Shown: positions 3,675 through 50,089 of the stretch, piece after piece
Layout of the letters: each line of letters starts with the position of its first letter
How positions within the stretch are numbered: the stretch's first letter is position 1
Assembly (NCBI RefSeq): GCF_001610835.1
Contig: NZ_CP011270.1
Span: forward strand, 7,871,256-7,935,255
Origin: Planctomyces sp. SH-PL14
Lineage (GTDB): Bacteria; Planctomycetota; Planctomycetia; Planctomycetales; Planctomycetaceae
Reading direction: 5' to 3'
Length of the DNA: 64,000 bases
Translations under genes and position numbers: made by a program
Notes under the pieces: generated by a model
Database searches by the model: none
What the model was told of the DNA's origin: nothing
Seen by the model: the letters and a program-made list of their open reading frames with translations, nothing else

Positions 3675-5032
3675 ACAACCTCAACTCGTTCCAGCGCAAG
3701 ATGGTCTATCTCGTGGGGATCCTGGTCCTCATGGTGCCGATCTTCCTGCTCGGTTCGACCGAGGCGGGCGTCGGGTTCAAGTACGGCCTCGCCCGTCTGC
3801 GGCAGGACTACAAGCTCGGCGAATCGAGCCTCGGCAAGGTCGACCCTGCCAGTTCCACGTTCAACGTGGTCCTGCTGGGCTTCCGCGGCGTCGCCGCGAG
3901 CGTGCTGTGGCAGCAGGCGGAAGAGCAGAAGGCGACGAAGAACTTCGCCGAACTCGCCCAGACCGTCGAGTCGATCTCGCTCCTCCAGCCGCACTTCCAC
4001 AAGGTGTGGCAGTACCAGGCCTGGAACCTCGCTTTCAACGTCTCCGCCGAGTGCGACGACGTGAAGGACCGCTTCCACTGGGTCAAGCAGGGAGCCAAGT
4101 ACCTGCTCCGCGGGATCGCCGCCAACGAGCGGTCGCCGGAGCTCCAGTTCGACATGGGGGAATTCGTCGGCCGGAAGATCGGCCGGTCGGATGAGAAGGA
4201 GTCGTTCCGCAAGTTCTTCCGCGTCGACCCGCGGGAAGACCTGTACGCCGGCAAGGCGGACCCGGACATCAATCCGAACAACGAGGACAACTACCAGCGG
4301 GCCAAGACCTGGTTCCAGCGGTCGAACGACCTGATCGAGGCGGGCGAAGAGCAGCACCGGATGGATACCATCCTGATGCTCGCTTACCCGTACCACTCGA
4401 CCCGGGACTACGCCCAGGCCCGCAAGGACGAAGGGCTGCTCGACGCCGAGACGACCTCCGCCTGGCAGCAGTTCTACACGGAGTGGACCGAAGCGTACGG
4501 CAAGAAGGAGTTCATGAGCCCTGGCGGACTCATTTACTTCGAAGCCGTGACCGACGACCGCGTCCGGGCCCTGTGCGCCAAGGAGGGGGACAAGTACCCC
4601 TTCGAGGACAAGAAGCACTGGGTCGCCCGCTACCAGTCGACCGCGAACTACCGCTTCTGGCGGACCCGCGGCCAGTTCGAAATGCAGCCGACGGTTCAGG
4701 AAGCGACGAAGGCCCTGACGGTCGGCCGGAAGCTCTACTTCAAGCAGGAGCTCTCCGCCTCGCGGGAGAACATCGAGAAGGGGCTTCGGGAAATGAAGCT
4801 CGCGATCGACACCCACGTCGGCCTGACGAACAACGATTCGGTCCTGACGGACGACGACGACCTGGCGGAACTGATCCTCAAGGCGATCCTCGTTTACCAG
4901 CGGGTCCTCGATCTCCAGGAGAAGAAGCCTCTGCCGGACGACTTCCCGCTGCGGGCCGAGTATTGGGATAATCCGAGCTGGTCGCACAAACGGCAGGAGC
5001 TCGAAGACCTGTTCCGCCGACTGAGTTCGTAA
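3671..5032 (+). CDS. Hypothetical membrane-anchored protein (single N-terminal TM), co-transcribed with the ABC transporter
   Basis: 453-aa ORF, 4-nt overlap with the upstream gene, N-terminal TM helix. No recognisable catalytic motif. Confidence 0.55.
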   Translation: MNNLNSFQRKMVYLVGILVLMVPIFLLGSTEAGVGFKYGLARLRQDYKLGESSLGKVDPASSTFNVVLLGFRGVAASVLWQQAEEQKATKNFAELAQTVESISLLQPHFHKVWQYQAWNLAFNVSAECDDVKDRFHWVKQGAKYLLRGIAANERSPELQFDMGEFVGRKIGRSDEKESFRKFFRVDPREDLYAGKADPDINPNNEDNYQRAKTWFQRSNDLIEAGEEQHRMDTILMLAYPYHSTRDYAQARKDEGLLDAETTSAWQQFYTEWTEAYGKKEFMSPGGLIYFEAVTDDRVRALCAKEGDKYPFEDKKHWVARYQSTANYRFWRTRGQFEMQPTVQEATKALTVGRKLYFKQELSASRENIEKGLREMKLAIDTHVGLTNNDSVLTDDDDLAELILKAILVYQRVLDLQEKKPLPDDFPLRAEYWDNPSWSHKRQELEDLFRRLSS

Positions 5033-5177
5033 CGCGGTGCTGTCGGGACGGCCGCAATCGTCCGGTGCTCTCTCTGGAGTGTCGGAACGATGTGTGGCAA
5101 AGGATTTCGGGCGAACTTCGTTCGCCGCCGCGTGTCCCGTGAACGTCCGGCCCGTCCCCGCGGCGGGCTGGCCGTTG

Positions 5178-5206
5178 TTGACAGACTTCCCGAATCGCGC
5201 ATAATT
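5178..5206 (+). promoter_or_regulatory. Sigma70-like promoter TTGACA-N17-ATAATT upstream of Leu-rich leader ORF/leuA
   Basis: TTGACA at 5178-5183, 17-nt spacer, ATAATT at 5201-5206. The leader ATG is at 5213, so the transcript would be nearly leaderless. Confidence 0.35.
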
Positions 5207-5212
5207 CGACTC

Positions 5213-5272
5213 ATGTCCACGATCCTTCTGAGCCTCGGCCTCCTTAGCCTTCCTCCCCAGCGGAGGTCTTAG
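5213..5272 (+). CDS. Putative Leu-rich leader peptide MSTILLSLGLLSLPPQRRS (attenuator candidate for leuA)
   Basis: 19 codons, 6 Leu (3 of them the rare CTT codon in this GC-rich genome). It sits between the promoter-like element and a strong terminator hairpin directly upstream of leuA. Confidence 0.4.
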   Translation: MSTILLSLGLLSLPPQRRS

Positions 5273-5302
5273 GTCGGTGCTCTGATTCTGCGTGTGAATC
5301 CA

Positions 5303-5336
5303 CCCCTGAGACGTCCCGGTCTCAGGGGTTTTTTTG
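5303..5336 (+). terminator. Rho-independent terminator (perfect 10-bp stem CCCCTGAGAC/GTCTCAGGGG, loop GTCCCG, then TTTTTTT)
   Basis: Perfect inverted repeat at 5303-5312 and 5319-5328 followed by a 7-T run at 5329-5336, 59 nt upstream of the leuA start. Confidence 0.65.
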
Positions 5337-5394
5337 TTTCTGGAGGGTGGTTCGGCCCCGGCCTTCCCCCTCCGCCTTCAGCCTCAACCCTGCC

Positions 5395-6966
5395 ATGTCC
5401 GACTTCATCACGATCTTCGACACGACTCTCCGCGACGGCGAGCAGTCTCCCGGCTGCAGCATGGACACCGAGCAGAAGCTCGAAGTGGCGAAGGCGCTTG
5501 TCGAGCTCGGCGTCGACGTGATCGAGGCGGGGTTCCCGATCGCGTCCCCCGGCGACTTCGACGCGGTCCAGAAGATCGCCCGCAAGTATGGCGACCAGTC
5601 GACGATCTGCGGCCTGGCCCGCTGCCGGACCGAGGACATCGACCGCGCCTGGGAGGCCCTGAAAGACGCCCAGAACGTCCGGATCCACATCTTCCTGGCG
5701 ACGAGTCCGATCCATCGGCAGTTCAAGCTCAAAATGGCGGAGGAAGAGATCATCCGGAAGACGGTCGACATGGTCCGCTACACCGCCGACCGGATGAGCG
5801 AGCGGTCCGACATCACCCGGCCGAACGTCGAGTTCTCACCGGAGGATGCCGCCCGGACGGAGCTCGACTTCCTGTGCCGCGTGGTCGAGAGCGCCATCGA
5901 CGCCGGGGCGACCACGGTCAACATCCCGGACACGGTCGGGTACGCGACCCCGAACCACTTCTACAAGGTGATCTCCTACCTCAAGAAGAACGTCCCCAAC
6001 ATCGAACGGGCGGTCCTGAGCACGCATTGCCACAACGACCTGGGGCTGGCGGTCGCCAACAGCCTGGCCGGGGTGGAAGCGGGAGCCCGGCAGATCGAGT
6101 GCACGATCAACGGTCTGGGCGAGCGGGCCGGGAACGCGGCGCTGGAAGAAGTCGTCATGGCGCTCAAGACGCGTCAGGACTACTTCGGCGTCGACACGCG
6201 GATCAACACGCCGAAGCTCTGTCCGATCAGCCGCCTGGTCTCCAGTACGACCGGGATGCGGGTCCAGCGGAACAAGGCGATCGTCGGTCAGAACGCCTTC
6301 GCCCACGAGGCGGGGATCCACCAGCACGGCATGCTCCAGAACCGCACGACCTATGAGATCATGCGGCCGGAGGATGTCGGCTACACGGGCCAGAACATGG
6401 TCCTGGGGAAGCACAGCGGCCGGCATGCGTTCCGCGATCACCTGAAGCGGATCGGTTACGAGCTGACGGACGAAGACTTCCAGCGGGTGTTCGACGACTT
6501 CATCGCGCTGTGCGACCGCAAGAAGGATGTCTATGACGCCGATATCGCGGCGCTCATCGACAAGCAGATTCATCACGGGCCGGAGACCTGGAAGCTGGTG
6601 AGCTTCCACACATTCGGCGGGACCGGGACGATTCCGACGGCCACGGTCGAGCTGCAGCATCTCGACGGGAAGAAGGTGAAGGACGCCGCGCCGGGGGATG
6701 GACCGGTGGACGCTCTGTTCCGTTGTCTGGACCGGATCACGCACATCACGCCGACGCTCGAGGATTACAGCGTGCGGGGGGTCTCATCGGGGACCGATGC
6801 TCTGGGCGAGGTGACGGTCGAGGTGGAGCAGCAGGGGCGGACGTACCATGGCAAGGGGGTCAGTACCGACATCATCGAGGCGAGCGGTCTCGCGTACCTG
6901 CAGGCGCTGAACAAGATCGCGGCCGGTCTTGGTGCGGCGACGATTCATCCTCAGCACGGTGTCTGA
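5395..6966 (+). CDS. leuA: 2-isopropylmalate synthase
   Basis: MSDFITIFDTTLRDGEQSPG...HCHNDLGLAVANSLAGVEAGARQIECTINGLGERAGNAALEEVVMAL, the HMGL-like TIM barrel plus the C-terminal LeuA dimerisation/regulatory domain. Start chosen at ATG 5395 (same frame as the 5347 ORF). Confidence 0.92.
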   Translation: MSDFITIFDTTLRDGEQSPGCSMDTEQKLEVAKALVELGVDVIEAGFPIASPGDFDAVQKIARKYGDQSTICGLARCRTEDIDRAWEALKDAQNVRIHIFLATSPIHRQFKLKMAEEEIIRKTVDMVRYTADRMSERSDITRPNVEFSPEDAARTELDFLCRVVESAIDAGATTVNIPDTVGYATPNHFYKVISYLKKNVPNIERAVLSTHCHNDLGLAVANSLAGVEAGARQIECTINGLGERAGNAALEEVVMALKTRQDYFGVDTRINTPKLCPISRLVSSTTGMRVQRNKAIVGQNAFAHEAGIHQHGMLQNRTTYEIMRPEDVGYTGQNMVLGKHSGRHAFRDHLKRIGYELTDEDFQRVFDDFIALCDRKKDVYDADIAALIDKQIHHGPETWKLVSFHTFGGTGTIPTATVELQHLDGKKVKDAAPGDGPVDALFRCLDRITHITPTLEDYSVRGVSSGTDALGEVTVEVEQQGRTYHGKGVSTDIIEASGLAYLQALNKIAAGLGAATIHPQHGV

Positions 6967-12692: not shown

Positions 12693-12770
12693 CCGGGTCC
12701 AGGGGTACCCTGGTGGGGGATGCAAGGGGGCCCGTGTTGTCTTCTTGGCCCCCTTGCCCGCCGGAGGCCT
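12693..12770 (-). repeat. Dispersed repeat copy C (right stem-loop module only, inverted)
   Basis: CCGGGTCCAGGGGTACCCTGGTGGGGGATGCAAGGGGGCCCGTGTTGTCTTCTTGGCCCCCTTGCCCGCCGGAGGCC is the reverse complement of the right terminus of copy B. Confidence 0.75.
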
Positions 12771-12817
12771 GGCCGTCTCTAGATGTCTGAAGGAGATCGT
12801 GTCCAAGCGCGGACGAA

Positions 12818-13180
12818 ATGCCGGATGCCCCCTCACCTCCTGTTGGTTTGCAGTCGCGACCCGCGCGATCGGCGGCCACGCTTCGCATCCGGTGGCTCCT
12901 TATTGCGACAACCCTCTACGTCGGCGTGTACGTCGCGCTGTCGGCGAGCGGTGGGTACGGAAGCGCGTCGTCGGGGCGGCTTCGTTACGGCGGCGGGTTG
13001 TCGGTGTCGGACCTTCAAGTGTGGCAGCCCCGGTTCTGCCGCTGGCACAGCCGGACGCAGATCGACGGCTCGTGGACGTTCAGTGCCAACCCGCCCGGAG
13101 TCTTCTTCGCGCCGCTGATCCTCATGGACCGGTGTTTCGTCCATCCCACGGTGAACCTGTTCGACCAGCGGCCTCAGTGA
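12818..13180 (+). CDS. Hypothetical small membrane protein
   Basis: 120-aa ORF with one TM segment. No homology recognised, low support. Confidence 0.3.
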   Translation: MPDAPSPPVGLQSRPARSAATLRIRWLLIATTLYVGVYVALSASGGYGSASSGRLRYGGGLSVSDLQVWQPRFCRWHSRTQIDGSWTFSANPPGVFFAPLILMDRCFVHPTVNLFDQRPQ

Positions 13181-13567
13181 AGCCGGCGGGACATGCGGCC
13201 CCGTCGCGCCGTACGCGTCCCGGCCGTCCGGAAAAATGGGGCAATCTCCGTGAACCTTCGCCGGACGCGGGGCGTCTCGTAGGCGGCGGGCCGCAACGAT
13301 GGCCAGGTCCCGTTGGAGAATCCCCGTGTCGTGCTCACAACCCCGTTCGACGTTGCAACAGACCAGCGCCCTATGCGGTTTCGGTCCCTGCGGCGCCGTC
13401 GTGAGTTCCGGCGAGGACTCTCGATATCGCGAGACGCGTCGGTGATGTCCGGCCCTCCGTGGAGCAGAACTCCCCGGCCCGGCGTCATCGCGACGCCGGG
13501 CTTTTTTCTTGCCGGTTCTCCATTCACACCGGACCGGTCCGCGAGGCGGGCCGTTGCCGATCCGAAC

Positions 13568-13638
13568 GCGCCCATGATGTAACGGCGGCCTGCCGCTCTG
13601 CCAGAGCGGTCGTGCGGGTTCGACTCCCGCTGGGCGCT
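13568..13638 (+). tRNA. tRNA-Gly (anticodon GCC)
   Basis: Acceptor GCGCCCA/TGGGCGC, anticodon arm CCGCT-CTGCCAG-AGCGG, T-arm GCGGG-TTCGACT-CCCGC, discriminator T. The D-stem has one mismatch. No encoded CCA. Confidence 0.7.
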
Positions 13639-13672
13639 TCCTGAAATCGAAGGATCACTTCGGAATCACCAC

Positions 13673-13755
13673 GGAAGTCATCCGGCCGGATGAGGGCCCT
13701 GTCTCGAAAACAGGCGCGGTGCAGACCGTTGTGGGTTCGAGTCCCACGGCTTCCG
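13673..13755 (+). tRNA. tRNA-Ser (anticodon CGA), class II with long variable arm
   Basis: Acceptor GGAAGTC/GGCTTCC with G73, anticodon arm CCTGT-CTCGAAA-ACAGG, 16-nt variable arm, T-arm GTGGG-TTCGAGT-CCCAC. The D-arm is atypical (A at position 8) in my hand fold. Confidence 0.55.
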
Positions 13756-13791
13756 CCTCGACAGTTCTGACACAGACGCGCACGCGCACAC

Positions 13792-13863
13792 GGTCCCGTG
13801 GTCCAGCGGCCACGACTCCTGGCTTACATCCAGGCAACGATGGTTCGAGTCCATCCGGGATCA
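13792..13863 (+). tRNA. tRNA-Val (anticodon TAC); its 3' end is the island attachment site
   Basis: Acceptor GGTCCCG/CGGGATC, anticodon arm CCTGG-CTTACAT-CCAGG, T-arm GATGG-TTCGAGT-CCATC, discriminator A. Confidence 0.8.
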
Positions 13864-15131
13864 CTAGTTCTCTTCAAGGAGGGAAGGCTTTTTCCTCGCT
13901 TTCTTGGTTTTTGCTTGGCGTCGTCCATGTGGGTGTCACCGTCGGGCACACTCGGACCGTCGCCGGCAGTCACTGACAAGTGTGCAGAGTAGTGTGCAGC
14001 ATCGGTCGCCCGGGAGAAGTCCTCGTCGCGGACTTGGAGGTAGTTCTTGCTGGCGACCTGCACTGAATGTCCGATCCATTGGCAGACGACGTGAATGGGG
14101 AACTCGGCCGCCAGTTCGGTCTCTCGGGTGGCCCGCAGGTTATGGAACAGCTTGCCCCAGGGCTCCAGGCCGGCGCGACGGATCGTCTGCAGGAGACGCG
14201 TCCGCAGGTTGCAGCTCCGGTCTCGATACCGCGTGATCACAAAGCCACGTTTGTCTTCCGCCGCGGCGTAGAGCGACTGGAGTAGCGGACGCAGCTCCGG
14301 GAACAGGGGAATGGTCCGGCTTCCCTTTCCGCTGTGTCGCTCAGTCTTGGGTGACGTCACAACGATCCGTCCTTTCTTCCAGTCGACGTCCTTCCAACGA
14401 AGTGACAGATGCTCGGACGGGCAGCGGAGACCTCCGAATCGGCCCAGGGCGAACACAAGCCGCCATTCGTCGTCCAGGCACGCCGCCAGGACCTTGTCAG
14501 CCATCTCACGGGTCACGAAGAAGTCTCGCGATCTGTTCTCCCGGACAGTCCGAGGGATGTCGCGGTGAATGAACGGATTCCGGTTGACGACCCCGCGGTC
14601 GGCTGCGTCGGTGAAGAACTGACTGGCGATCGAACACATCTTGCGGACCGTGTTTTCGGACAAACCGCGGCCCGGCCCCCTGCCCTCTCGAAGCATCCAG
14701 TGTCGGAAGTCCTTCGCTTCCCCCAGCGAGACAGATTCGATGGGGCGGTCGTCGCCGAAGACCTTCACCAGATAGCGACGGCAACGTCTCCAGAGGACCT
14801 TGCTCCCTTCGCACACATCGCCACGGCCGGAAATGTAGTCGGCGGTGAAGCCCCCAATGGTGACCGGCTTCGCTTCTGCGGTCGGCCTTGCGATCAAGCC
14901 GTGCGTGTAGAGCTTCTGCCGCATCACGTCGCCGCAGTCCGCAACCCAGGCCGCCGTTTCCGCGGGGACCGCCGTGCTGGCTGTTTGAGAGGTCAACAGT
15001 TGTTCCAGATGCCGCTTGACCCCCTCTGCCGCCTTCTTGGGCATCTTGCCGGGATAGAACGACTTCTGGACTCCGTCGCGGTCCACGTAGCGGATGTTCC
15101 AGGCGTTGCGATTCTTTGAGAGAGATGCCAT
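13824..15131 (-). CDS. int: Tyrosine-type site-specific integrase (phage/P4-like); C-terminus overlaps tRNA-Val on the opposite strand
   Basis: 435 aa with the catalytic R...HxLRHT...Y region (LFHNLRATRETELAAEFPIHVVCQWIGHSVQVASKNYLQV) and a SAM-like N-domain. The stop at 13824 falls inside the tRNA-Val 3' half, typical of tRNA-targeting elements. Confidence 0.9.
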   Translation of the reverse strand: MASLSKNRNAWNIRYVDRDGVQKSFYPGKMPKKAAEGVKRHLEQLLTSQTASTAVPAETAAWVADCGDVMRQKLYTHGLIARPTAEAKPVTIGGFTADYISGRGDVCEGSKVLWRRCRRYLVKVFGDDRPIESVSLGEAKDFRHWMLREGRGPGRGLSENTVRKMCSIASQFFTDAADRGVVNRNPFIHRDIPRTVRENRSRDFFVTREMADKVLAACLDDEWRLVFALGRFGGLRCPSEHLSLRWKDVDWKKGRIVVTSPKTERHSGKGSRTIPLFPELRPLLQSLYAAAEDKRGFVITRYRDRSCNLRTRLLQTIRRAGLEPWGKLFHNLRATRETELAAEFPIHVVCQWIGHSVQVASKNYLQVRDEDFSRATDAAHYSAHLSVTAGDGPSVPDGDTHMDDAKQKPRKRGKSLPSLKRTSDPGWTRTIVAWM

Positions 15132-29983: not shown

Positions 29984-30057
29984 GTCCTCGTGGAGTAGCC
30001 CGGAGTACTCGCACCCTGTCACGGTGGAGATCGGGGGTTCAAATCCCCTCGGGGACG
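29984..30057 (+). tRNA. tRNA-Asp (anticodon GTC)
   Basis: Acceptor GTCCTCG/CGGGGAC, D-stem GAGT/ACTC, anticodon arm GCACC-CTGTCAC-GGTGG (one G-G mismatch), T-arm GGGGG-TTCAAAT-CCCCT, discriminator G. Confidence 0.7.
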
Positions 30058-30163
30058 CCTTTTCGCTCGCGCCGTGCGGGCGGAGAAGGGCCGCGGGAGT
30101 GTGTGTGCGTCTGGAAAGTCAGTGATCTGCCTCTCGGGCGGTGAAGCGTGATCGGCGGGAATC

Positions 30164-30289
30164 GGGAGGGCGAAGCTCCTGCTGAGCCGCGCAGGCTCCT
30201 GACCGCGTCCAGTCTCTCCTTTGGCCTGTGTCCAAAAATCATCGAGCGCGTCGGCCACCGCCGCGGCTCAGCAGGAGCCTCGCCCTCCC
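30164..30289. repeat. Long imperfect hairpin: 28-bp inverted repeat (GGGAGGGCGAAGCTCCTGCTGAGCCGCG / CGCGGCTCAGCAGGAGCCTCGCCCTCCC) with 70-nt spacer between tRNA-Asp and tRNA-Tyr
   Basis: Arms 30164-30191 and 30262-30289, one mismatch. No ORF, no T-tail. Confidence 0.6.
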
Positions 30290-30370
30290 GGCAACATCAA
30301 CTTTCGGGATGCACACTCCATCCGACTTGCTCGGGTCGAGAGCGGTGCCGTCCATTTCATTGAGCAACTT

Positions 30371-30452
30371 GCGTCGGCTGGGCATTGGTGAGCCCTGGTG
30401 GCCGTAACCCACCCGCCTTCAGGCTGTGGCGGTTCAACTCCGTCCCGACGCA
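30371..30452 (+). tRNA. tRNA-Tyr-like (anticodon GTA), class II, non-canonical C8 and C33
   Basis: Acceptor GCGTCGG/CCGACGC, D-arm GGGC-ATTGGTGA-GCCC, anticodon arm GGTGG-CCGTAAC-CCACC, 14-nt variable arm, T-arm GGCGG-TTCAACT-CCGTC, discriminator A. Confidence 0.5.
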
Positions 30453-30491
30453 CTTTCGATTGCCTGGCGTTTCGCCCCGCGATCAGTTTCA

Positions 30492-30577
30492 GGAAGGGAG
30501 CCGGATACGGTTTGCCGGGCCGGCTTGCTAAGCCGTGCGGCCTCCGGGCCATGAGGGTTCGAGTCCCTCGCCTCCCG
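30492..30577 (+). tRNA. tRNA-Ser-like (anticodon GCT), class II; acceptor stem has mismatches
   Basis: Anticodon arm CCGGC-TTGCTAA-GCCGT, long variable arm GCGGCCTCCGGGCCAT, T-arm GAGGG-TTCGAGT-CCCTC, G73. The 5' acceptor GGAAGGG vs 3' GCCTCCC leaves two mismatches. Confidence 0.45.
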
Positions 30578-30683
30578 CTCATAGGAACTGGGCTACAGAT
30601 GAACGCCGATGATCACGGCTCAAGAGAGGGATCTCCAACTTCCGCCGCGGAAAACTGAAGACTGAAAACCAACAACTGACAAC

Positions 30684-30755
30684 CGTCCTCGGAGTGTGAG
30701 GGACAGCACGCGACCTTGCGAAGGTCGTAGATCAGGTTCGACTCCTGGCGAGGAC
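30684..30755 (+). tRNA. tRNA-Arg-like (anticodon GCG), otherwise canonical cloverleaf
   Basis: Acceptor GTCCTCG/CGAGGAC, D-arm GTGT-GAGGGACA-GCAC, anticodon arm CGACC-TTGCGAA-GGTCG, T-arm TCAGG-TTCGACT-CCTGG, discriminator A. Position 8 is G, and a GCG anticodon is unusual. Confidence 0.5.
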
Positions 30756-30798
30756 ATCGGAGCTGCGGCTCCACAGACGGAGCTGCGGCTCCTTCAAC

Positions 30799-30870
30799 GA
30801 CGCTGATGCCAGACGGTCTGGCGGCGGCCTGCAAAGCCGCCCCGCGCGGGTTCGACTCCCGACAGCGTCT
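30799..30870 (+). tRNA. tRNA-Cys (anticodon GCA)
   Basis: Acceptor GACGCTG/CAGCGTC, D-arm GCCA-GACGGTC-TGGC, anticodon arm GCGGC-CTGCAAA-GCCGC, T-arm GCGGG-TTCGACT-CCCGA (one mismatch), discriminator T. Position 8 is A. Confidence 0.55.
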
Positions 30871-30976
30871 CTTTCAGGCAAGAACCGTTGCCCCCTCTTT
30901 CCAGCGGCGGACGGCCGCCCCTTCCCGGGGTTCGGCCCGTCTGTTCCGGACATGGTTTGTGACTGGAGGGGATCGA

Positions 30977-31049
30977 TGGCGGTTAGCTCAGCAGGTAGAG
31001 CACCAGACTCAGAATCTGGACGTCGCGGGTTCGACTCCCGTACCAACGC
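30977..31049 (+). tRNA. tRNA-like gene with class-I architecture but anticodon CAG (Leu) and two acceptor-stem mismatches; possible pseudo-tRNA
   Basis: D-arm GCTC-AGCAGGTA-GAGC, anticodon arm CCAGA-CTCAGAA-TCTGG, T-arm GCGGG-TTCGACT-CCCGT. Acceptor TGGCGGT vs ACCAACG pairs poorly. No long variable arm. Confidence 0.35.
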
Positions 31050-31444
31050 CGGCTAGTCACCGGCAGCACCCGGGGGTCTCTCAGGAGACCTCCACCATGA
31101 AGCCCCAGGGAGAAGAGCGTCTGCTGGATCGGCCTGTGTTGCGGTTCGCCGCGGCGAGGCAGCATGGCCAGCGGCCCTGAAGGGCGCGGAGTCCGCCGCG
31201 AGCCTCGTTCGGCAACGGGGCGTCTACGGTCCGATCGATGAGTCCCGCGGTTCGCCTCGGGTCGAAGACCGGTCTCGAAGACGCCTCGGCACCGATCGAA
31301 GCCACGGCTCAACCGCCCTCCGCCGCGATCCGTGTGATCGGCAGCTGTCTCGTCTGTCTGGGGTGTTTCTTCAAGCAAGCGCGTGTGCGCAGAAAGACCG
31401 GGGCCGGATGCTCCGGGCGGCTGGTCCTCCGAAAGGGGAGGTGG

Positions 31445-49997: not shown

Positions 49998-50068
49998 TCC
50001 GGGGTAGTTCAGCGGTAGAACGCTCGGCTTGGACCGAGTGGGCGCTGGTTCGAATCCAGCCCCCGGAC
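49998..50068 (+). tRNA. tRNA-Pro (anticodon TGG); the anticodon loop counts only 6 nt in my hand fold
   Basis: Acceptor TCCGGGG/CCCCGGA, D-arm GTTC-AGCGGTA-GAAC, anticodon arm CTCGG-CTTGGA-CCGAG, T-arm GCTGG-TTCGAAT-CCAGC, discriminator C. Confidence 0.6.
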
Positions 50069-50089
50069 CCAATCTGCGGTGATCGTGAG

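Follow-up and report, generated by a model that had tools for sequence, protein, structure and literature searches.

A probable leader-peptide transcription attenuator preceding leuA in Planctomyces sp. SH-PL14, conserved among Planctomycetaceae

Whether the segment that precedes leuA in Planctomyces sp. SH-PL14 regulates this gene in response to leucine, or simply ends transcription of the genes lying before it, was investigated in a 64,000-nt stretch of DNA (NCBI RefSeq assembly GCF_001610835.1, contig NZ_CP011270.1, positions 7,871,256 to 7,935,255 of the forward strand), hereafter the window, in which positions are numbered from the first letter. An earlier reading, made from the sequence alone, had proposed a leucine leader-peptide attenuator at 5178-5336, organised like those of enterobacteria. 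Our analysis supports this proposal, as the element is conserved in relatives, the genes upstream are non-syntenic and an antiterminator has been found. With a probability of roughly 0.8, the segment would act as a ribosome-mediated (leader-peptide) transcription attenuator, matching leuA expression to how much charged tRNA-Leu is available. The enterobacterial layout of promoter, Leu-rich open reading frame (ORF) and terminator is present, and the sequence and predicted-fold features of the attenuator class are found at this locus: a Leu-rich leader ORF, an intrinsic terminator, a mutually exclusive antiterminator, a 1:2 helix over the control codons and a stop codon within the antiterminator arm. 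The predicted folds follow the 1:2, 2:3, 3:4 logic of classical attenuators. One correction applies to the original description, in which the elements were placed within 160 bp of leuA; 160 bp is the span of the elements, which lie 60-217 nt upstream from the leuA ATG (5395). Coordinates are collected in Table 1.

Table 1. Positions of the predicted attenuator elements and of leuA in the window
Feature	Position	Strand	Description
-35 box	5178..5183	+	TTGACA; sequence and promoter scan
-10 box	5200..5206	+	CATAAT (5200-5205, 16-nt spacer) or ATAATT (5201-5206, 17-nt spacer)
Leader ORF	5213..5272	+	ATG 5213, 19 codons, TAG 5270-5272; peptide MSTILLSLGLLSLPPQRRS
Leu control codons	5225..5251	+	Codons 5, 6, 8, 10, 11, 13: CUU CUG. 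CUC. CUC CUU. CUU
Hairpin 1:2 (predicted anti-antiterminator, possible pause hairpin)	5216..5297	+	Coding segment 5227-5254 pairs with 5259-5285
Antiterminator	5266..5312	+	5266-5279 pairs with 5301-5312; predicted fold
Intrinsic terminator	5302..5335	+	11-bp stem, 6-nt loop, U7
leuA (2-isopropylmalate synthase, 523 aa)	5395..6966	+	Pfam HMGL-like (2.3e-98), HCS_D2, LeuA_dimer

Conservation of this arrangement was followed in two sets of loci. A LeuA search limited to one genome per species provided 80 loci, the best encoding a protein 77% identical to that of the window and all but four belonging to Planctomycetaceae (metagenome-assembled genomes together with Planctomicrobium, including SH664/SH527 at L010 and L013, Schlesneria and Planctopirus); a metagenome scan provided 80 further loci. 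A heuristic selecting the best hairpin plus T-run, and then the most Leu-rich short ORF ending no more than 90 nt upstream, recovered the ORF and terminator pair in ∼65 of the 74 planctomycete genome loci with upstream sequence and in 21 of 25 metagenome loci with a LeuA at least 65% identical. In contrast, the pair was reported at only 2-3 of ∼50 loci with 54-61% LeuA identity, a frequency which represents the false-positive rate of the heuristic. The homologous ORFs are 13-26 codons long and their peptides, which include MSTTLLSLGLLLSLPPGGRS, MNKLSLNLGLLLTLPPHGRS, MNQNLLNLSLLLLLPHPSGMA, MRSDLRLLALSLLLR and MKHESLLLLGLLLTR, share a constant Leu cluster while the remaining residues vary. A covariance model (R1), built from an alignment (A1) of 24 window-like leaders, termed class A, detects one copy in the window (5213-5334, 90 bits) and one before leuA at virtually all Planctomycetaceae loci, including most of those missed by the heuristic (among them L007, L008, L012, L014, L037, L040, L074, L079, L082 and L085). 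A minus-strand match in the window was rejected as a second copy, being the palindromic terminator itself. Overall, almost all of the ∼95 Planctomycetaceae loci with usable upstream sequence carry a promoter, a Leu-rich ORF and a terminator before leuA and, because the combination recurs at this position in nearly all related genomes, it is not a product of chance. Comparison with close relatives, suggested as a check when the attenuator was proposed, thus finds the Leu-rich ORF and terminator conserved. The closest relative, L081 (metagenome contig Ga0247822_10014286, 5.4 kb), encodes a LeuA 100% identical to that of the window and differs at two of 308 upstream bases (5096 G/A and 5374 G/C), both outside the leader; judged from this identity, it is the same or a sister strain of the window organism. 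The metagenome scan for very close relatives carrying fine-scale compensatory changes returned only this locus, with essentially the same sequence.

Alternatively, the hairpin could serve only the upstream ABC-type gene cluster, as its intrinsic terminator, with the promoter-like site and Leu-rich ORF present by coincidence. The upstream genes are indeed on the same strand, ending at 5032, and the interval 5032-5178 contains no canonical terminator, only a GC hairpin at 5110-5126 that lacks a U-tract. However, the three proteins encoded upstream in the window are found beside leuA in none of the 80 relatives, yet leader and terminator are present there, and a tblastn search of the 80 loci with five flanking window proteins detected none of them, save two weak, non-syntenic ABC ATPase matches. 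Of 59 leaders, 55 have a conserved promoter separating them from the upstream gene, and the ORF with its Leu run maintains both frame and distance to the hairpin across very divergent sequences. As the leader is present where the upstream genes differ, the promoter-leader-terminator unit travels with leuA and not with the upstream cluster, and a simple upstream terminator, an outcome the sequence-only reading had allowed for, is extremely improbable. The 5110-5126 hairpin (GGCGAAC-TTC-GTTCGCC) is itself perfect and GC-rich, begins 78 nt past the stop codon of the upstream 453-aa ORF and may be the end of the upstream transcript.

The terminator of the proposed attenuator is formed by CCCCTGAGAC (5303-5312) and GTCTCAGGGG (5319-5328), arms also written CCCCUGAGAC and GUCUCAGGGG, respectively. 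The perfect 10-bp GC hairpin and T7 run described previously are both present, the stem reaching 11 bp with the A5302:U5329 pair; the end given for the run, 5336, was incorrect, as it extends from 5329 to 5335, and 59 nt separate the terminator from leuA. Only four hairpin-plus-T-run sites of comparable strength (stem of at least 7 bp, at least T5) occur in the 64-kb window, all on the plus strand and none on the minus strand, indicating that a terminator is not a common feature of this DNA. In alignment A1, 94.8% of the terminator cells are paired and seven pairs have changed on both sides, covariation that was equalled in none of 500 shuffles and not approached by slid registers. The base of the stem, CCCUGAG/CUCAGGG, is maintained in most leaders and the distal stem varies. 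The other strong sites are located at 13477-13507, 20600 and 41541. The first of these, GCCCGGCGTC/GACGCCGGGC followed by T6, was considered as another attenuator and rejected, as it precedes by ∼60 nt a tRNA cluster (13568-13864) of tRNA-Gly(GCC), tRNA-Ser(CGA) and tRNA-Val(TAC); an ORF at 12745-13404 ends ∼70 nt before it.

A sigma-70 promoter scan of the first 20 kb of the window matched the promoter preceding the leader at 11 of 12 consensus positions. The only other site detected matches 9/12, the threshold of the scan, at which shuffled sequences yield ∼2 matches. The near-consensus TTGACA-17-ATAATT promoter recognised earlier is present, CATAAT with a 16-nt spacer being equally readable. 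Such a promoter had been regarded as unusual for this lineage; at the leuA locus it is in fact the rule, a strict pattern (TTGAC, 17-19 nt, TAnnnT, no more than 120 nt upstream of the leader) being present upstream of the 55/59 related leaders referred to above and in 0.3% of shuffles, with close variants of it in the window and in L020. TTGAC-N17-TAnnnT can thus serve as a working promoter consensus for Planctomycetaceae. Transcription is predicted to start at ∼5212-5214, at or adjoining the A of the leader AUG. Between the -10 box and the start codon lie 6 nt in L005, in L034 and, with the ATAATT reading, in the window; L009, L012 and L074 have 12-14 nt there and the other leaders 22-75 nt. 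Inspection of the sequence before the window leader ORF revealed no Shine-Dalgarno sequence. With the AUG 6-7 nt after the -10 box and a start on its A, the window leader would probably be translated as a leaderless mRNA.

The 19-codon ORF with six Leu codons, half of them the rare CTT, was confirmed. CTT represents 6.6% of Leu codons in the ORFs of the window, and the probability of at least three in six is 0.005 (calculated from 29 GC3-filtered long ORFs). Pooled over 61 leaders, Leu codons are 34% CUG, 18% CUC, 19.2% CUU, 21.8% CUA, 5.5% UUG and 1.6% UUA, compared with 31% CUG, 43% CUC, 5.5% CUU, 0.05% CUA (1/2099), 19% UUG and 0.8% UUA in the adjacent leuA genes. CUA and CUU, which the leuA genes avoid, are thus abundant in the leaders (odds ratio 11.9). 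In the Salmonella leu leader, replacement of CUA by CUG lowers sensitivity (PMC1183508).

Predicted folding of the leader provided the alternative structures on which attenuation would depend. In the absence of a ribosome, the whole leader folds into a long hairpin (5216-5297) followed by the terminator (-53.5 kcal/mol, z = -4.95), and 5213-5300 folded alone gives -31 kcal/mol. The Leu control codons lie in the 5' half of this anti-antiterminator hairpin, paired with 5266-5285 in the minimum-free-energy fold, and the hairpin hides the 5' arm of the antiterminator (z = -3.6 for the window compared with shuffled upstream halves). The original inspection had found no convincing antiterminator pairing by eye. 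One nevertheless exists: a segment folded from 5267 to 5322, that is, beyond the ribosome-covered part and before the terminator 3' arm has been made, pairs as listed in Table 1 with -16.3 kcal/mol. Its main helix joins GUCUUAGG (5266-5273), which holds the stop codon UAG, to CCUGAGAC (5305-5312), consisting of UCUUAGG (5267-5273) with CCUGAGA (5305-5311) extended by G5266:C5312; a second helix pairs GGUG (5276-5279) with CACC (5301-5304) and an apical stem pairs GAUUC (5284-5288) with GAAUC (5296-5300). Because the antiterminator uses the whole terminator 5' arm, the two structures exclude each other. Folding the leader, another check recommended at the outset, therefore predicts mutually exclusive antiterminator, terminator and 1:2 folds. 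A CCTCC-CCAGC-GGAGG stem in the ORF, suggested previously as a pause element, did not fare as well: in its fixed register the helix is 63.7% paired across class A leaders, indistinguishable from controls, and is unsupported as a family-wide helix.

The position of a ribosome was modelled as an unpaired block extending to 11 nt past the A-site codon, with z calculated against dinucleotide shuffles of the spacer. In the window, a ribosome on the last Leu codon results in capture of 10/10 nt of the terminator 5' arm (z = -3.4), decreasing to 0/10 nt with the ribosome on the stop codon. A similar response was obtained from 61 distinct leaders. Without a ribosome, the terminator is formed in 99.5% of arm positions; once the ribosome occupies the last Leu codon, an upstream segment captures 71% of the terminator 5' arm, compared with 53% in shuffles (mean z = -2.1, with z < -1.64 in 40/61 leaders), and with the ribosome on the stop codon 27% is captured. 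Furthermore, in ribosome-free leaders pairing with the coding region hides 83% of the antiterminator 5' arm, compared with 66% when upstream halves are shuffled (Wilcoxon p = 9e-8). The antiterminator forms in 57 of the 61 modelled leaders. L047 (Planctopirus hydrillae) and L054 (Planctopirus) do not form it in the model because their last Leu codon is the final codon and the mask covers everything, a result which is an artefact of the masking rule and not evidence of absence.

The antiterminator is also conserved at the level of primary sequence. Its core (A1 columns 75 and 77-82 with 124-129 and 131) is 96-100% paired with both arms invariant, and an RNAalifold consensus of 25 trimmed relative segments independently returned the same 9-bp helix, with a negligible covariation term. 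One informative change supports the pairing: in L013, an A to G substitution in the terminator 5' arm (CCCUGGGAC) is accompanied in the 3' arm by a compensatory U to C change, and the changed G still pairs, as G.U, with the antiterminator U. GGUCUUAGG, surrounding the stop codon, is invariant although the peptides end in RS*, TS*, KS*, MA* or RG*, indicating that conservation at the C-terminus reflects an RNA constraint and not a peptide constraint. In class A leaders, the antiterminator arm extends from -7 to +10 with the stop codon as reference. Class B leaders have 13-17 codons and end in, for example, LLLR*, LLLTR* or LLLP*; their antiterminator arm, by eye a partial copy of the terminator 3' arm, does not span the stop codon and lies 3-21 nt (mostly 8-21 nt) after it.

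Combined, these observations suggest how the attenuator would operate. Transcription would begin from the promoter at 5178-5206, at or adjoining the A of the leader AUG (5213), and a ribosome translating the 19-codon leader would follow RNA polymerase closely. With ample leucine, this ribosome would pass the six Leu codons and reach the UAG at 5270, covering the antiterminator 5' arm (5266-5279) or, once released, allowing hairpin 1:2 to re-form and hide that arm; either way, the terminator (5302-5335) would fold and transcription would stop 59 nt before leuA. When leucine is short, the ribosome would stall on the Leu codons at 5225-5251, melting hairpin 1:2 and leaving the segment from 5266 onward free to pair with the nascent terminator 5' arm, so that no terminator forms and polymerase reads into leuA. 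The start site, translation of the leader and the response to leucine are inferred from the sequence in this scheme.

Conserved alternative structures would also be expected if the leader were an RNA switch set by a protein, an uncharged tRNA or a small molecule, and not by translation of the ORF. A non-translational switch has been proposed for the actinobacterial LEU element, in which mutation of the Leu codons had little effect, and the leuA and ilvB leaders of Streptomyces resemble attenuators but failed mutational tests (PMC1262725); absence of a Shine-Dalgarno sequence before the window ORF is in keeping with such a switch. Against this, ∼90 loci retain the start codon, the in-frame Leu run and a stop codon on or just before the antiterminator arm, while the peptide otherwise varies in sequence and length, and most alignment gaps within the ORF in A1 have lengths divisible by three. 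Apart from the alternative-helix arms, A1 shows no other prominent long conserved segment that might constitute a ligand pocket. T-box leaders sense tRNA and carry a specifier loop and the T-box sequence. Neither T-box nor riboswitch models, nor Leu_leader (RF00512), matched when 4900-5600 was scanned with 4227 Rfam models at E up to 10, and a scan of the whole window at gathering scores also returned no Leu_leader or T-box match. Sub-threshold matches to anti-hemB and NsiR1, unrelated small RNAs, were driven by the terminator and rejected, leaving the element without a matching Rfam family. A ligand-operated switch is therefore improbable, and sensing of leucine through translation of the leader ORF remains the preferred explanation.

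The products of the leader might instead act in trans, either the ∼120-nt terminated RNA or the 19-aa hydrophobic peptide exerting an effect besides or in place of control in cis. The promoter is strong and the terminator appears efficient, and there is a precedent in Sinorhizobium, in which the trp attenuator RNA rnTrpL and its peptide peTrpL are reported to act in trans (PMC6614838, PMC7298713). In the leaders studied here, however, little of the peptide beyond the Leu run is conserved, RNA pairing accounts for its conserved C-terminus, the element is always attached to leuA, and no trans target emerged, though none was looked for. A trans-acting product is thus very unlikely, and the evidence continues to favour attenuation of leuA in cis.

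Several points weigh against attenuation by a leader peptide. The support consists wholly of sequence comparison and predicted folds, and the attenuator-like leaders of Streptomyces ilvB and leuA failed to show classical attenuator behaviour once mutated (PMC1262725). This indicates that architecture alone is not proof and holds our confidence near 0.8. Lacking a Shine-Dalgarno sequence, the window leader would depend on leaderless initiation for its translation. The third positions of CUN codons in the leaders are close to an unselected distribution, and the CUA and CUU excess could simply reflect relaxed codon selection in an ORF that does not encode a protein; the bias is consistent with selection for sensitivity without being proof of it, and rare leader codons were not accepted as a demonstrated adaptation. 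The 1:2 pairing shifts register between subclades and its family-wide mean z of -1.6 is only moderately above chance. For the full 12-pair antiterminator helix, 77.8% of cells in A1 are paired and covariation is no better than in shuffles; as both arms are invariant, the antiterminator is without covariation support and we rely on conserved complementarity and folding statistics. Finally, the sequences are related and not independent, which renders the pooled statistics and p-values optimistic.

Variation in the element was observed at several loci. An additional ORF lies between attenuator and leuA in L012 (2130-2957, encoding a 275-aa protein with no Pfam family) and in L074 (2580-2933, encoding a 117-aa 23S_rRNA_IVP protein, E = 1.5e-35), where the predicted attenuator would control a two-gene unit. 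In L014 (2718-2846), the Leu-rich ORF is not in frame with the conserved UAG and continues into the terminator, which may reflect either a genuine frameshift variant or an error in assembly. Leu-rich short ORFs and terminators of different sequence also precede leuA in metagenome loci with 56-61% LeuA identity (L107 at 718-853, L108, and L155 at 1021-1143), ORFs such as MNALLALLPLLLLALGA and MIRRRNNESILLLGLLLR being present. The proteobacterial outgroup loci L077 (1676-1800), L078 (1762-1882) and L080 (1758-1873) carry a different leader, for example MIKNRQALPLPVLLSHGRCGRLV, with a terminator, CCCCGCACC..GCTGCGGGG-T7, located ∼1.1 kb upstream of leuA and presumably in front of another gene.

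Two tRNA annotations elsewhere in the window are unusual. ARAGORN reports a 'tRNA-???' with the two-base anticodon 'tg' at 49998-50071, a segment which Rfam scores as a good tRNA (61.7 bits) and which may have an unusual anticodon loop or an intron, or be a miscall. At 30977-31050, within a six-tRNA cluster (29984-31050), ARAGORN reports a 74-nt tRNA-Leu(CAG) that Rfam aligns at model positions 5-66 only. As tRNA-Leu normally has a long variable arm, 74 nt is short and the Leu identity may be wrong.

To our knowledge, almost nothing is known of gene regulation in Planctomycetes, for which a conserved and easily recognised cis-regulatory switch offers one concrete regulatory circuit. The main value of the element is to provide Planctomycetaceae with a first cis-regulatory RNA family and promoter consensus that are well supported, and alignment A1 and covariance model R1 can be used in genome annotation. 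No published description of leader-peptide attenuation in Planctomycetes was found in full-text searches of the literature; the survey of Lopatovskaya et al. 2010 might hold predictions, and one paper touching both topics merely counts short ORFs close to genes (PMC4833913). Tentatively, the element may represent an uncatalogued, Planctomycetaceae-wide family of leucine attenuators, independent of the enterobacterial one, with the window ORF carried on a leaderless mRNA starting at its AUG and with a strictness of conservation that could be taken as genetic evidence of tight transcription-translation coupling in these bacteria, although we hold this combined interpretation with less than even confidence. 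Such an attenuator works only with a ribosome within a few dozen nt of RNA polymerase, and its conservation is consequently indirect evidence for coupling. In Gemmata, a member of the same phylum, transcription and translation have been proposed to be spatially separated (cited in PMC5394234). The requirement of leader-peptide attenuation for co-transcriptional translation bears on the debate concerning planctomycete compartmentalisation, for Planctomycetaceae alone. The design would have converged with that of enterobacteria in its cluster of Leu codons, rare CUN codons and a stop codon adjoining segment 2.

The enterobacterial leu attenuator, leuL, has its own promoter, a run of four Leu codons, three overlapping helices and a terminator upstream of leuABCD. 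In mechanism, the window element would belong to the enterobacterial leu/trp/his type. It similarly combines its own promoter with a short ORF containing a cluster of Leu codons, and the same three overlapping helices (1:2, 2:3 and 3:4) with a terminator before the first leucine-biosynthesis gene. The Leu codons are likewise those rare in ordinary genes, CUA in Salmonella (PMC1183508), CUU in the window and CUA or CUU in its relatives. In contrast to leuL, the Leu codons of the window are interspersed (LL.L.LL.L), the stop codon falls within the antiterminator arm, no Shine-Dalgarno sequence precedes the ORF, which is probably at the 5' end of the mRNA, and the regulated unit appears to be leuA alone, not leuABCD; homology to leuL (RF00512) in sequence or structure was not detectable with Rfam models at E up to 10.

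The LEU element and the ilvB/leuA leader peptides of Corynebacterium, Streptomyces and Mycobacterium also place a Leu-rich upstream ORF before a stand-alone leuA in GC-rich bacteria outside the Proteobacteria (PMC1262725). The LEU element has been described as a pseudoknot in which the base stem pairs Leu codons with the leuA Shine-Dalgarno box, it has no obvious terminator and its mechanism is disputed (PMC1262725), whereas in the window a canonical, covarying terminator is located 59 nt before leuA and the Leu codons have 5259-5285, and not the start region of leuA, as their predicted pairing partner. Mycobacterial leaderless polycysteine ORFs, which attenuate the operons downstream of them, are similarly reported to be short regulatory ORFs at the 5' end of an mRNA that sense a single amino acid through its codons (10.1101/834739); they sense cysteine, and leaderless initiation in the window is deduced from the 6-7 nt that separate the AUG from the -10 box. 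The Staphylococcus aureus ilv-leu attenuator peptide is likewise leucine-rich and precedes branched-chain amino-acid biosynthesis genes, but it is found in a different phylum, is part of a multi-gene operon and acts alongside CodY (PMC5794164). Compared with these systems, the element upstream of leuA in the window is not a new mechanism but a non-homologous, planctomycete example of a well-known kind of regulator.

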